A DNA stretch of 64,000 bases from a virus. Position 1 is the stretch's first letter; each line of letters begins with the position of its first letter. The DNA lies in IMG/VR virus record IMGVR_UViG_3300045988_135167. One strand, written 5' to 3'. Below, one piece after another: positions 28,402 to 32,619 of the stretch. Both the position numbers and the translations under genes were made by a program. The notes under the pieces are model-generated. The model did no database searches. It saw only the letters and a program-made list of their open reading frames with translations, and had not been told where the DNA came from.

Positions 28402-28424
28402 AACAATAGAAAGAACCAGCCAAC
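28402..28424 (+). promoter_or_regulatory. conserved early-gene leader copy 1 (AACAATAGAAAGAACCAGCCAAC-ATG)
   Basis: One of six near-identical motifs ending 0-8 nt before start codons. Confidence 0.5.
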
Positions 28425-28688
28425 ATGAAGAGATACCGATTTGTGATTTACGCCTTGAAAGGCATTGCAGGCCTGAAAGCGGTTGACTCCCTGGAATGCT
28501 CTACGCTTTTGGAAACTATCCGGAAAGGCAAGCATGCCGTTGAAACTAAAGGTGAAAGCCTTGTCATGTGGGTCCAAAAATACGAACCGGGTACTGAGCC
28601 GTCCGGCTGGCTGACAGTCACTGTGTTCACCCGCAAGGGCGGCCCGCGCTCCCATTGGATGGAAAAGCCGGACTACTCCCCCTATTAA
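28425..28688 (+). CDS. hypothetical early protein (87 aa)
   Basis: ORF track; preceded by conserved leader. Confidence 0.45.
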   Translation: MKRYRFVIYALKGIAGLKAVDSLECSTLLETIRKGKHAVETKGESLVMWVQKYEPGTEPSGWLTVTVFTRKGGPRSHWMEKPDYSPY

Positions 28689-28693
28689 CCCTA

Positions 28694-28715
28694 AACCATA
28701 GAAAGACAATAGATT
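28694..28715 (+). promoter_or_regulatory. conserved leader copy 2 (AACCATAGAAAGACAATAGATT-ATG)
   Basis: Motif match. Confidence 0.45.
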
Positions 28716-28811
28716 ATGACAGAAGAAAATAAAGAAATGGAATGGGAGACACACGCCCTTGCGAGTCAGGCGGCGGCCCGTGCTAATGCAACCCTTATAT
28801 GGTGCGTGTGA
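28716..28811 (+). CDS. 31-aa mini-ORF (MTEENKEMEWETHALASQAAARANATLIWCV)
   Basis: Hand translation; supported mainly by the conserved leader in front of it. Confidence 0.35.
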   Translation: MTEENKEMEWETHALASQAAARANATLIWCV

Positions 28812-28824
28812 TTTTACCGTTCGC

Positions 28825-28850
28825 CGAATTGTTCCACGTGGAACAATTCG
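28825..28850. promoter_or_regulatory. 26-bp perfect palindrome CGAATTGTTCCACGTGGAACAATTCG
   Basis: Read directly; second copy of the CACGTG-core palindrome. Confidence 0.45.
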
Positions 28851-28890
28851 AGAATCACAAAAGGCGAGGTTTTAATCTCGCCGCATAAAT

Positions 28891-28916
28891 AAGCCAATAG
28901 ACAGGAAAATCAAATC
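28891..28916 (+). promoter_or_regulatory. conserved leader copy 3 (AAGCCAATAGACAGGAAAATCAAATC-ATG)
   Basis: Motif match (more diverged). Confidence 0.4.
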
Positions 28917-29162
28917 ATGAAGCCTATCATTACATTCTGCAAGCCGGACCTTTCCGGAAAAATCGCGCCCCTTTGTGGCACGATGGATTCCTATTTGGAC
29001 GACGGCCGCCGCTCCCTGGAGTCCATTAAACAATCTGCATGGGAAGAATTGAAGCGACGGAACGCCCATTCAAAAACCAATTATGCCGGGTTTGTCATTT
29101 ATAATGCCATTTCCTTCCCATGGCGCACCGTGTACAAAACCCATGAAGAAATTGAGGATTGA
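28917..29162 (+). CDS. hypothetical early protein (81 aa)
   Basis: ORF track. Confidence 0.45.
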   Translation: MKPIITFCKPDLSGKIAPLCGTMDSYLDDGRRSLESIKQSAWEELKRRNAHSKTNYAGFVIYNAISFPWRTVYKTHEEIED

Positions 29163-29200
29163 ACCTTTAATTTGAAGGAAAAAGCATATATCTTTGAATC

Positions 29201-29398
29201 ATGATAACTTCATATATTCCCCCTTGCCTTCAGCGGTCCGCGCGTGAATTGGAGCTTGAACTGGCAAAGACCCGGTGGATTCAAGCCGTTGAATACCTGA
29301 AAGAAGAAATTGAAAATAACAAGCACGACAAGCGGAAAGTCCGCGCCTTGCTTCAACGGCTCCGGGATCAATATTCATGGAGGCCTGCTATTTATTAA
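29201..29398 (+). CDS. hypothetical early protein (65 aa)
   Basis: ORF track. Confidence 0.4.
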   Translation: MITSYIPPCLQRSARELELELAKTRWIQAVEYLKEEIENNKHDKRKVRALLQRLRDQYSWRPAIY

Positions 29399-29538
29399 AT
29401 AAAAAATAATGAACAAAAAGCTTGCAATCCGGTTCAAGCAAGCATAGATTGAAAGCATCAACTGAGGCGGCCCGCCGCACAGGGCAATCCAAATCCGGTT
29501 ATCACCGGAAAACTAAAATCCAAACCAAAAACTAATTT

Positions 29539-30410: not shown

Positions 30411-30432
30411 ACCCTTAATCCCTCCGGAAAAT

Positions 30433-30448
30433 GTTCCACGTGGAACAA
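30433..30448. promoter_or_regulatory. third copy of palindrome TGTTCCACGTGGAACA (flanks imperfect)
   Basis: Read directly. Confidence 0.45.
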
Positions 30449-30502
30449 TCCGGGAACCTCAAACCAAATCAAAAGGCAGGATTAAAATCCTGCCACGTAA
30501 AC

Positions 30503-30526
30503 AAACCAATAGAAAGAACCAACAAT
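30503..30526 (+). promoter_or_regulatory. conserved leader copy 4 (AAACCAATAGAAAGAACCAACAAT-ATG)
   Basis: Motif match. Confidence 0.5.
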
Positions 30527-31159
30527 ATGAACGCTAATTCAATTTATGAACTGGAACAATTAAAGGAAAAAGTCGCGCTGAACCGTTGCATCCTGGAAAT
30601 CTGGATCGACGTATTGCCTCACATGGACAAATGCTTTAAAACTTTTCAGGAATGGCTTGAAAAGCACCAAGGGCAAGTGATTAACAAGCGCGTGAATACA
30701 GCCATGAAAGAAGCCTTTCGTGGGTTTGATTTCCCGAACTTATCCCACAAGGAGTTTAGGAATGTTTCCCTGCGAACGTTTGTAGATTTTGAATTTTCCC
30801 GTTATCAGGTAAACGCTTTTCAATTTTCTGTTAACATGGAGGTAATCTACTCTTTGAAGACTGACGAATTTGGATGTAAATATGATAAAAGTTTTTGGAT
30901 TAACGAAGACGGTATGACAATCGGCAAGATTGACGTTAATTTAGTTGAAGGAATTAAAAACATGCGTAGAAAGTTGAAGAAGAAAATCCATGAGGCAAAA
31001 GATTTGTTGAATCACTATGAAGACCGCATGGCCGTTCTTGTTCAAAAAGCGGAAGCATGTCTTCAGGCAATGGAAGACTGGGAGAAAGCAACAAACCTTT
31101 TTAATAGCCCGCGCTGCTTTATTGCTGTGGAATCCTGCCCTAAATTGAATAAACGTTAA
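30527..31159 (+). CDS. hypothetical early protein (210 aa; start moved to MNANSIYEL)
   Basis: ORF track 30431..31159; conserved leader lies immediately before the internal ATG at 30527. Confidence 0.45.
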   Translation: MNANSIYELEQLKEKVALNRCILEIWIDVLPHMDKCFKTFQEWLEKHQGQVINKRVNTAMKEAFRGFDFPNLSHKEFRNVSLRTFVDFEFSRYQVNAFQFSVNMEVIYSLKTDEFGCKYDKSFWINEDGMTIGKIDVNLVEGIKNMRRKLKKKIHEAKDLLNHYEDRMAVLVQKAEACLQAMEDWEKATNLFNSPRCFIAVESCPKLNKR

Positions 31160-31196
31160 ACCTTGAACTCGCCGGGGAGCTTCAAACTCCCCCGGC

Positions 31197-31219
31197 ATTG
31201 AATAGAAAGAAACCTAGTC
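31197..31219 (+). promoter_or_regulatory. conserved leader copy 5 (CATTGAATAGAAAGAAACCTAGTC-ATG)
   Basis: Motif match; preceded by 10-bp GC hairpin 31170-31196. Confidence 0.45.
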
Positions 31220-31741
31220 ATGATCAATCTTCAAAAACCTGTAATGGTAAGCAATGAAGCTTTCCTTGAATGCCTGGACATTCCCACATGGGCAATCAAT
31301 TATTTGGAATATGGGGAGGACGAAACGGAAGAACTTCATCCGGACGATTTGGCCCTTGTCGAGTCATTCAGAAGGAAATGGGATCACCTTGAACGAAAAT
31401 CGGAAGAGTTCTATTCCAACTCTCCGGCGTTTGGTCTTCCGTCCACCGTGGAAACATGGGCTTGCATTCCAAAAATCCTTTCCGGGTTTGTCTCCTACGC
31501 TCCCCTGAACCGTAGAATCGGCGTAAACGGAAACGTTATTTATTACACGCAAAAGGAGAACGGAACCTGGAAGATTGTTTATGGTCTTGCATCCGTTTCC
31601 CTGGATGGAAGAAAAACAGTCGGCGTGTGCGTCAATGAAGTCCTGGAACGGATACGCCTGGCAAAAGATGAACGTGTTAAAGGGTTCATAATCAGAAGTC
31701 ATAACACAGTTCTTTTTAAATCAAACAAAAACATAGCCTAA
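31220..31741 (+). CDS. hypothetical early protein (173 aa)
   Basis: ORF track. Confidence 0.45.
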   Translation: MINLQKPVMVSNEAFLECLDIPTWAINYLEYGEDETEELHPDDLALVESFRRKWDHLERKSEEFYSNSPAFGLPSTVETWACIPKILSGFVSYAPLNRRIGVNGNVIYYTQKENGTWKIVYGLASVSLDGRKTVGVCVNEVLERIRLAKDERVKGFIIRSHNTVLFKSNKNIA

Positions 31742-31742
31742 G

Positions 31743-32513
31743 ATGAAATTGTACTTGACTAAAAACACCGGACGTGAAGAGTTCGCAAATGTTTATGAAG
31801 CCTTGCGGTCTTCCTATCCAGAGAAAGTGCGGCGGGAGATTTACCCCGTTCAATTCAACTATGAAAATCCAGGGCAAAAGCCGCCTATCCGTATTATCGG
31901 CTCTGATCTGGCAGGAACTCCCATTCTGTGCATGGCCATTCATGAAGATGGAGAACTTACAGGATTCATGAAAAGATACAAGTACCCGGTGAAGCTTCCC
32001 TTCATGGCTCGAATTGCGCTAGATGCAGGAGCTACTCATTTTCTGGGAATCCGGGAACTTCCCATTCACCAGAAGCTTGCCGACCTTCTGGATTTTAAAG
32101 TGATGGATGATCCGCAACTTGCCGCCATGAATGCGGTTGCCAATTTGTTCACGGAGTCCCGGAAGTCTCCTGATGTGGTTCGGTTTGGTGCCAAAACAGA
32201 GAAACGAAATGGCCCGCGGGAACTGTTGAACAATTTCATTCTGGAAATTGCGGACAATTGCATCGTGCGCCGTCTTGAAAATAGCCGGGAGTCGTTGAAG
32301 TCCTATCCGCTGGAAGTCATCGCCCGCATGACCAGCCGCAACATTGTTCCACTGATTCCTGAAGATGTGGACTGGGAAACTTTCGTGCGTATTTCCCCCA
32401 GGGAAGACCCCGAAACTATCATGGCCGCCGTGTTGCTGGATCGGGAAGGGGAGTTCCATATCTTTCATGATTATTCCGTGCCTCAGCACGTGGACTTCTC
32501 CGCACTGGCATGA
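31743..32513 (+). CDS. hypothetical protein (256 aa)
   Basis: ORF track. Confidence 0.45.
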   Translation: MKLYLTKNTGREEFANVYEALRSSYPEKVRREIYPVQFNYENPGQKPPIRIIGSDLAGTPILCMAIHEDGELTGFMKRYKYPVKLPFMARIALDAGATHFLGIRELPIHQKLADLLDFKVMDDPQLAAMNAVANLFTESRKSPDVVRFGAKTEKRNGPRELLNNFILEIADNCIVRRLENSRESLKSYPLEVIARMTSRNIVPLIPEDVDWETFVRISPREDPETIMAAVLLDREGEFHIFHDYSVPQHVDFSALA

Positions 32514-32593
32514 TTCAATACCCCGCCGGGAAGCCTGAAGCTTCCCGGCATCCTCACCAAGCCAAAAGCAGGCCTCACGGCTTGCCGCGTAAA

Positions 32594-32619
32594 ACAAGCC
32601 AATAGAAAGAACCAAACAA
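32594..32619 (+). promoter_or_regulatory. conserved leader copy 6 (ACAAGCCAATAGAAAGAACCAAACAA-ATG)
   Basis: Motif match; GC hairpin CCGGGAAGC-CTGA-GCTTCCCGG at 32526-32548 upstream. Confidence 0.5.

Follow-up and report, generated by a model that had tools for sequence, protein, structure and literature searches.

A probable translation-initiation element conserved before the early genes of an uncultured human-gut phage and its proposed shifted pairing with the 3' tail of Akkermansia 16S rRNA

The window analysed here (IMG/VR virus record IMGVR_UViG_3300045988_135167, 64,000 nt) comprises most of the ~69-kb genome of an uncultured phage. Minus-strand genes extend from position 1 to 27.3 kb and encode a terminase (10098-11930), a family A DNA polymerase, an intein-bearing helicase and a VapE-like primase. 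Between this block and a plus-strand block (28.4-49.5 kb) lies 1.5 kb of non-coding DNA. The plus-strand block holds small unassigned open reading frames (ORFs), an NAD-dependent ligase and a 3323-aa ORF, and is followed by a second minus-strand block. The subject of this study is a short leader sequence repeated just upstream of the start codons of small ORFs in the plus-strand block, the early genes, and the part it very probably plays in translation initiation. One of the encoded early proteins (165 aa) was present in exact form in 211 blocks of a public assembly index, in contigs of up to ~70 kb, and the samples read appeared, judged by their names, to be human-gut metagenomes. No match was found in a reference phage collection, either by near and distant DNA searches or by tblastn with the giant protein and the terminase, and scans of the window for Rfam families and tRNAs were negative. 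GC content was 43-61% across 2-kb windows, and about 50% in the loci of relatives.

A preliminary description of this DNA had reported a conserved leader of roughly 20 nt, with copies ending 0-8 nt before early-gene ATGs. The repeated leader is real, as both the core statistics and a matrix ranking bear out, but the shared core is shorter than described, with only 8 nt conserved across relatives. The full 18-mer CCAATAGAAAGAACCAAC has its sole exact match in the window at 30506; allowing up to three mismatches, it occurs at three sites (28403, 30506 and 32599), against 0.05 expected. The core ATAGAAAG occurs six times on the plus strand (starting at 28406, 28698, 30509, 31202, 32602 and 57194) and not once on the minus strand, and a variant core, ATAGACAG, is found at 28897, where the imperfect core is followed by G. 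The distance from core end to ATG is 10-12 nt in the six copies that precede ORFs (Table 1), consistent with the earlier figure, which was measured from the longer leader, and no GGAGG is present at any of the six, as previously stated. A position weight matrix (PWM) trained on distant relatives only, with the window left out, returned the seven copies as its seven top matches in the 64 kb (scores 14.6-24), compared with 0.75 matches above 12 in shuffled windows. An evident promoter was seen only at copy 1; copies 3-6 follow hairpins without clear -35 or -10 elements, and may be transcribed by read-through from upstream.

Table 1. Leader copies, hairpins and promoter candidate in the window.
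Feature	Position	Strand	Context	PWM score
Promoter candidate, sigma-70-like, TTGACG-N18-TAAAAG	28318..28347	+	~60 nt upstream of copy 1; inferred from sequence	
Copy 1, core ATAGAAAG	28406..28413	+	11 nt to ATG 28425 (87-aa ORF)	21.3
Copy 2, CCATAGAAAG, 10-nt complement of CUUUCUAUGG	28696..28705	+	10 nt to ATG 28716 (31-aa ORF)	18.9
GC hairpin GGCGAG-N8-CTCGCC, preceded by AAAA	28863..28882	+	14 nt upstream of copy 3	
Copy 3, variant ATAGACAGG	28897..28905	+	12 nt to ATG 28917 (81-aa ORF)	14.8
GC hairpin GGCAGGAT-N4-ATCCTGCC	30475..30494	+	14 nt upstream of copy 4	
Copy 4, core ATAGAAAG	30509..30516	+	10 nt to ATG 30527	24.0
GC hairpin GCCGGGGAG-N7-CTCCCCCGGC	31171..31196	+	5 nt upstream of copy 5	
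Copy 5, core ATAGAAAG	31202..31209	+	10 nt to ATG 31220 (173-aa ORF)	14.6
GC hairpin GCAGGCC-N4-GGCTTGC	32568..32585	+	16 nt upstream of copy 6	
Copy 6, core ATAGAAAG	32602..32609	+	10 nt to ATG 32620 (165-aa ORF)	17.9
12-bp GC hairpin	57156..57187		On the minus strand followed by TTTT; resembles terminator of gene 57257-57460	
Copy 7, CCATAGAAAG, orphan	57192..57201	+	No real downstream plus-strand ORF	16.3

Relatives were reached through the terminase and an alignment of the primase in IMG/VR, giving about two dozen contigs of 60-73 kb, nearly all in dataset 3300045988. Their terminases are 58-63% identical to that of the window and their primases only ~25%, and their early regions lie just past the primase on the opposite strand, as in the window. 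In homologue searches, the primase gave one match and the N-terminal third of the giant protein none, and single-query searches with the ligase and with a 256-aa early protein returned only one close relative. A motif search in these related phages, proposed in the preliminary description, revealed 8-13 copies per relative of ATAGAAAG or its one-mismatch variants, located before early genes (L123-L126, L131, L132, L211, L250, L254, L267 and others). In 37 of 45 unique instances before early genes, 9-10 nt separate the end of the 8-mer from the ATG; the flanks diverge among groups of relatives, whereas the 8-mer and its distance to the ATG stay constant. The AGAAAG part is near-invariant in the PWM of the relatives, and the 8-mer is perfect in 30 of the 45 instances, making it more uniform than ordinary Shine-Dalgarno (SD) sequences. 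In one subgroup of relatives, the motif also stands 8 nt before the terminase ATG, within apparent upstream coding sequence, and another subgroup (L135, L141, L142 and L144) is without the motif.

Repetition of this kind could also arise if the leader were mainly a recombination linker for the shuffling of early-gene cassettes, with no specific role in expression. Early-gene content is mosaic. Copy 3 of sister strain L030 (6230-6300, compared with window 28860-28920) carries the hairpin and linker of copy 4, and the copy 2 leader together with its first four codons is nearly identical to that of a non-homologous 79-aa gene in distant relatives; both are signs of cassette shuffling at the leaders. 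A linker, however, needs no strand bias, no exact 9-10 nt to the ATG and no match to the 16S rRNA tail (see below), and it is the flanks that diverge while the 8-mer stays. We consider it highly unlikely that recombination is the main function of the leader.

The location of the motif relative to promoters was examined in the relatives, where a sequence agreeing with TTGACA-N16-18-TATAAT at 10-12 of 12 positions was found within the 120 nt upstream of 23 of 39 instances, compared with 2.4% of shuffles. The typical form is TTGACA-N16/17-TAAAAT or TAAACT, and the first early gene of the relatives is preceded by TTGACG-N16-TAAATT, at a place equivalent to that of the copy 1 promoter. The distance from the end of the -10 element to the motif ranges from 34 to 60 nt, a spread of 26 nt. 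A GC-rich hairpin starts 5-8 nt past the -10 element, i.e. at the predicted mRNA 5' end, and lies 5-20 nt from the motif, giving the order promoter, hairpin, a linker rich in A and C whose length varies, and the 8-mer. RNA folding predicts no structure between the motif and AUG+12 (mean ΔG -0.4 kcal/mol) and a structured region in the 53 nt upstream of the motif (-8.8 versus -4.0 for shuffles), with a hairpin of -8 or better in 29 of 46 instances. The motif itself has no -35 partner and does not constitute a host sigma-70 promoter. Because its distance is fixed to the AUG and variable to the promoter and hairpin, the motif sits inside the 5' untranslated region (UTR), tied to the start codon, which disfavours a promoter function, and the sigma-70-type promoters before the early genes mean that host-type promoters can explain early transcription. 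We conclude with high confidence that the early genes share, in the repeated leader, a genuine and conserved element for translation initiation. An initiation element or translational-control site had been among the functions first suggested for it, and this suggestion is supported by the fixed AUG distance, the unstructured stretch and the place of the motif downstream of sigma-70 promoters in the relatives.

A compact phage-specific promoter had also been suggested, with the giant protein as the polymerase that reads it; on this view, a giant RNA polymerase encoded by the phage and carried in the virion would use the motif as its promoter or initiator. The copies do follow hairpins at early-gene starts, a 3323-aa protein of unassigned function is encoded downstream, and the motif bears a superficial likeness to the SP6/T7 initiation region (..ATAGAAGA..). 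Among the relatives, however, a conserved length of 8 nt, a spacing that holds to the ATG and varies to the hairpin and sigma-70 elements, the presence of strong host-type promoters already before the early genes, and the copy inside coding sequence before the terminase gene all speak against a promoter. The candidate polymerase fared no better. The 3323-aa ORF (38873-48844, plus strand) has no recognisable domain apart from a HEMAH zinc-peptidase-like motif at residue 1580 and a weak Peptidase_M91 match. It contains no T7-like motif B/C, no DxDGD and no double-psi-beta-barrel motif, and searches against Pfam (even at E <= 1), PHROGs and PDB sequences gave no polymerase match; sequence-level searches of the other large ORFs likewise gave no Pfam, PHROG or PDB polymerase match and no motif A/B/C or DxDGD. 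Relative L267 encodes a homologue of the 3323-aa protein with 26% identity over 1563 aa, and the giant protein may be a virion or ejection protein. We regard the polymerase-promoter explanation as barely tenable. An N4-type hairpin promoter was also rejected, as the spacing between hairpin and motif varies and the hairpins lie downstream of sigma-70 promoters.

Two further promoter-like sequences were observed. A box, (T/A)TAC(A/G)CCGCCCTA(T/A)AAA, recurs in the early regions of L125, L126, L131 and L132, upstream of sigma-70 promoters or directly upstream of leaders, and resembles the T7 promoter core TACGACTCACTATA at 11 of 15 positions; a weaker version, ACTACTCCCCCTATTAA, is found in the window at the end of ORF 28425-28688 (28670-28690). 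A T7-like reading of the box (TACGCCGCCCTATAAAA) in the relatives was dropped, given its location upstream of sigma-70 promoters and the lack of any polymerase found. A second promoter-like class, AAAAAG-N2-3-TTGACA-N3-GAATCC-N7-TAGGAG/TAGAGA/TAAACC, lies upstream of 23459(-), 60693(-), 51190(-) and 37697(+). It is very near the annotated ATGs, and the genes that follow it may have leaderless or short-leader messages.

Many bacterial 16S rRNAs are annotated as ending ..CCUCCUUUCU, and the AGAAAG part of the motif complements the final six nucleotides of that end. The phage's other genes are mostly without an SD, so that an SD-scarce host is expected. The SD-scarce species Akkermansia muciniphila and A. 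glycaniphila have 4.4% and 3.8% SD genes, respectively, and 16S rRNAs that end GATCACCTCCTTTCT, with CCUCC kept (PMC10783764). Akkermansia 16S genes (loci L319-L425) were retrieved from gut metagenomes with the reverse-complemented sequence of AM2, a genus-specific primer mentioned together with Akkermansia in 187 papers, and Rfam confirmed a bacterial small-subunit rRNA gene at the fetched position. Of these loci, 104 of 107 read GGCUGGAUCACCUCCUUUCUAUGGAG, i.e. a tail of GGATCACCTCCTTTCTATGGAG, and the gene end reads ...CCUCCUUUCUAUGGAG. The reverse complement of CUUUCUAU is AUAGAAAG, matching the whole motif, including its conserved A and U, at 8 of 8 positions, and copies 2 and 7 (CCAUAGAAAG) complement the Akkermansia 16S over 10 nt. 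The chance of a given 8-mer complementing any window of the Akkermansia tail is ~2e-4. Most bacteria continue ...CUUUCUAAGGA; one of the 107 loci (CTAAGGATAATTT) shows this form.

The register of the predicted pairing is that of an SD, whose helix with the anti-SD ends about 5-9 nt before the start codon. The last G of the motif would share its partner, C1539, with the first G of GGAGG, and lies 10 nt from the AUG, so that a virtual GGAGG would stand at the usual optimum of about 6 nt, ending 5-6 nt before the AUG. The GGAGG core itself is absent, only the last G pairing with the anti-SD core: the base after the perfect 8-mers is A in 27 instances, C in three and G in none of the 30. Extension into GG or GGAG was found in 5 of 15 imperfect 8-mers versus 0 of 30 perfect ones (p = 0.0025), copies with an internal mismatch reading on into the core as AAAGAAAGGAA, AUAGAUAGGAGA and AUAGACAGGAA; sister strains with a different first early gene carry CCAAAAGAAAGGAAUCC (allele AAAGAAAGGAAT). 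The predicted duplex energy is -5.5 kcal/mol for a tail ending CUUUCU and -8.0 for one ending ...CUAU, and reaches -14.1 kcal/mol for CCAUAGAAAG against ...CUAUGG. This compensation and duplex behaviour match what base pairing with rRNA predicts, and a protein site would not obviously behave in this way. A few canonical strong SDs (-9 to -12.5 kcal/mol) are present elsewhere in the window, at 23208-23459(-), 36383-36667(+), 59983-60693(-) and 22421-22885(-).

We consider it probable that the motif acts through a shifted SD pairing with the extreme 3' tail of Akkermansia 16S rRNA, and Akkermansia is most probably the host. In the proposed mechanism, the motif would be the ribosome-binding part of the early-mRNA 5' leader, SD-like but in a shifted register: AUAGAAAG, 9-10 nt upstream of the AUG, would pair with the last nucleotides of the host 16S tail (5'-CUUUCUAU-3'), bypassing the canonical CCUCC core. 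Early phage messages would thereby gain a ribosome-recruiting signal that the almost SD-free host mRNAs lack. The upstream GC hairpin, placed at the transcript 5' end in the relatives, and the A/C-rich unstructured linker would complete the leader. We infer that mature Akkermansia 16S keeps AU after CUUUCU, and that pairing would enhance translation. A Bacteroidales host was set aside, given the TTGACA/TAAAAT promoters and the CUAU match. Bacteroidetes promoters differ from the ordinary sigma-70 type; the ordinary sigma-70 type of the phage promoters thus argues against a Bacteroidetes host.

The same motif could instead be the site of a sequence-specific RNA-binding protein or endoribonuclease that switches early translation, an arrangement that could coexist with rRNA pairing. 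The motif is almost wholly restricted to early genes, with six of the seven PWM matches in the window preceding genes of the early region; it is far more uniform than SDs; its perfect copies avoid extension into GGAG; and host genes in the Akkermansia sample are without it. For a protein site, however, complementarity to the Akkermansia tail at all 8 positions and at the SD register would be a coincidence, and the longer rRNA complementarity with which imperfect copies compensate would not be expected. Copies 7-11 nt before ATGs also occur in contigs without detectable protein similarity to the window (L291 and L303/L318). Ten early-region ORFs were searched without yielding a functional PHROG match or a candidate binder or nuclease, lack of annotation not being equivalent to lack of a protein. 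On balance, a protein site is unlikely. Alternatively, the motif could recruit ribosomes without 16S pairing, as an A- or purine-rich enhancer for bS1 or the mRNA channel of an SD-blind ribosome. Its flanks are A/C-rich and unstructured, and SD-scarce bacteria depend on upstream adenines (PMC13000457). Such enhancers are compositional, in contrast to an invariant 8-mer with two fixed Gs, and an enhancer leaves unexplained both the exact tail complementarity and the GG/GGAG compensation, making this alternative improbable.

Several observations weigh against the shifted pairing with the Akkermansia tail. Copies within a genome are partly paralogous, so that the counts given above overstate independence. 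The Rfam model ends ...CCUCCUUU and annotations end ...UUUCU; if the tail ended at CUUUCU, the pairing would have only 6 bp (-5.5 kcal/mol), leaving the conserved A and U unexplained. In Flavobacterium johnsoniae, a protein pocket binds the whole 16S tail as far as U1544 (PMC7797042, PMC9976891), and by analogy, Bacteroidia-like sequestration of the tail in Akkermansia would block pairing. The motif was found at none of 173 ORF starts beside Akkermansia rRNA operons, a small sample that is not enriched for highly expressed genes, and so gave no sign of routine use of this register by Akkermansia ribosomes. The stricter conservation and largely early-gene-bound distribution of the motif, compared with ordinary SDs, fit a sequence-specific protein too, and more distant marine relatives keep only ATAGA, the 8-mer frame ending 7-8 nt before the ATG. 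As for the host, no CRISPR, prophage or isolate link between the phage and Akkermansia was found, and a terminase-profile scan of genome contigs returned only distant marine metagenome-assembled contigs (Altibacter, Blastopirellula and Opitutae), giving no host call.

No spacer-like matches emerged when short matches were sought between the window and 890 kb of Akkermansia contigs, and a literature search for the 8-mer and for Akkermansia ribosome-binding site (RBS) or transcription start site data returned nothing relevant. Elsewhere in the Akkermansia sample, ATAGAAAG was seen only in the sequence antisense to the 16S end and at three other, unrelated places. The preliminary description had named use of the sequence by host genes as a generic RBS as part of what would refute its reading, and such use is not seen in this small sample of Akkermansia genes.

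Copy 7 was examined separately. It had been described as a seventh, reverse-context copy at 57189-57205; the copy there (57192-57201) lies on the plus strand among minus-strand genes, and only ATG GTT TAA follows it. It reads CCATAGAAAGAAAC and matches copy 5 over 12 nt, so that it is no chance match, and a relative with 78% identity in the neighbouring protein carries it unchanged. On the minus strand, copy 7 reads CUUUCUAUGG, which is the same sequence as the 3' region of Akkermansia 16S and complements the early leaders. This minus-strand sequence belongs to the 3' UTR of the 67-aa gene 57257-57460, where a terminator hairpin and U-run follow it directly, and the minus strand at 57150-57222 has the layout of a 3'-UTR-derived small RNA able to pair with the early leaders. 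Copy 7 may be a relic of a shuffled cassette, or it may specify a small anti-RBS RNA.

In the Akkermansia 16S end (...CCUCCUUUCUAUGGAG), the anti-SD CUCC is self-complementary to a conserved downstream GGAG, with a predicted hairpin of -4.2 kcal/mol and a 7-nt loop, UUUCUAU. AUGGAG is constant across the three main Akkermansia 16S variants, and the spacer that follows it diverges. A more elaborate model can be drawn from these features, in which mature Akkermansia 16S rRNA retains this longer tail, CUCC is masked by GGAG, the loop UUUCUAU is the sole accessible site and is read by the phage RBSs (AUAGAAAG), and the minus-strand RNA of copy 7 (CUUUCUAUGG), part of the late transcript, mimics the rRNA tail, could pair with the early leaders over 10-12 nt and would shut off early translation. 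We hold this model to be improbable; if true, the masked anti-SD hairpin would explain the SD-blindness of Akkermansia.

Traces of the motif were also observed further afield. The marine terminase relatives (L061-L115), whose terminases are 33-36% identical, are SD-poor, with ~10% of ORF starts SD-like, and show a sharp positional peak of ATAGA ~15 nt upstream of ATGs. The 3' halves of their motif are variable (ATAGAACA, ATAGATAC and ATAGACAA), and some copies lie inside upstream coding sequence. An IMG/VR pattern scan revealed several copies of the motif 7-11 nt before ATGs in L291 and L303/L318, which have no protein similarity to the window at E <= 1e-4, are presumably marine, by their dataset numbers, and have ORF starts almost free of SD-like sequence. 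One further copy precedes a gene on a contig whose neighbouring ORFs resemble, in our reading, myovirus baseplate genes. As the pattern scan is biased towards such matches, occurrence of the motif beyond the family is only suggestive.

Near the leader copies, a perfect palindrome, GTTCCACGTGGAAC, occurs three times in the window (20359-20372, 28831-28844 and 30433-30446), extending up to 24 bp with its flanks. Leader copies 3 and 4 each have one of these 30-60 nt upstream, and the third lies upstream of the DNA polymerase gene, which is on the other strand, making the palindrome a candidate operator or hairpin. The longest ORF and the gene called in assemblies start at ATG 30431, inside the palindrome; the true start of this ORF is probably ATG 30527, as leader copy 4 indicates.

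Upstream of the early genes, ~1.4 kb of non-coding sequence (26900-28320) separates them from the primase. This region contains many GTTGAATC/GTTGAAGC units, two to three direct repeats of GGAGCCGTGAAACTGGAAAAAAGTCCA (28125-28195), and two inverted palindromes, ACTTTTTATAC-N4-GTATAAAAAGT, at 28080-28110 and 28207-28235. Many of the relatives' IMG/VR contigs start or stop 1.5-3.9 kb from the primase. The 26900-28320 region probably holds the physical ends of the genome or an origin, with the early genes at the left end. In the minus-strand block, the helicase gene (16002-18512) is split by an intein with Hint and LAGLIDADG homing-endonuclease domains.

The shifted pairing, if correct, names a host, Akkermansia, from sequence for a widespread uncultured family of ~70-kb human-gut phages. 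It predicts that the Akkermansia 16S 3' tail reaches at least ...CUAU and can pair with mRNA, bears on start-codon selection in SD-scarce bacteria outside the Bacteroidia, and makes that question testable in a medically relevant species. It also hints at how a phage might win the competition for ribosomes right after infection, and the leader could offer a ready-made strong translation leader for Akkermansia engineering.

Several features of the leader recall systems that regulate or transcribe phage early genes. T4 RegB acts on GGAG in early SDs, and T4 RegA acts on early RBSs. The phage leader is similar in presenting a class-specific RBS sequence common to early genes, which could permit class-wide post-transcriptional control; it differs in the sequence of the motif, and no nuclease or repressor gene was identified among ten early ORFs. 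PeSL cassettes consist of an early promoter and a stem-loop between small early ORFs of T4-type phages. Here, too, a unit of promoter, stem-loop and RBS recurs ahead of numerous small early ORFs that evolve fast, and there are signs of cassette shuffling, but the order is promoter, hairpin, leader, and conservation resides in the RBS 8-mer, not in the promoter. The T7/SP6 and N4 hairpin promoters share with the leader a repeated short element after a hairpin at early-gene starts, and differ in spacing, being tied to the transcription start or to a hairpin at a fixed distance, in conserved length (about 18-23 bp) and in having a cognate polymerase, none being found here.

The closest parallels are in ribosome recruitment. 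In the Bacteroidia, the anti-SD is sequestered in a bS21/bS18/bS6 pocket. As in Akkermansia, the host class is SD-scarce and keeps CCUCC, and a few special mRNAs with unusual tail complementarity escape (PMC7797042, PMC9976891). Akkermansia, by contrast, is a verrucomicrobium, compared here from sequence alone; the phage promoters are of the TTGACA/TAAAAT type and not the Bacteroidetes type; and a tail bound to U1544, as in F. johnsoniae, would leave no terminal nucleotide free. Like extended SD/anti-SD pairings (AGAAAGGAGG; the 13-bp SD of Flavobacterium rpsU, PMC9976891), the phage motif is purine-rich, occupies the SD position and complements the Akkermansia 16S tail in the GGAGG register, and its weaker copies are compensated by longer pairing (PMC9976891). 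It differs from them in being without the GGAGG core and pairing with C1539 and the 7 nt 3' of C1539, in including AU beyond the usual annotated end, an Akkermansia-type sequence, and in being used by phage early genes in a probable host with ~4% SD genes. As the best explanation of the leader, the shifted register would be an SD pairing that dispenses with GGAGG.

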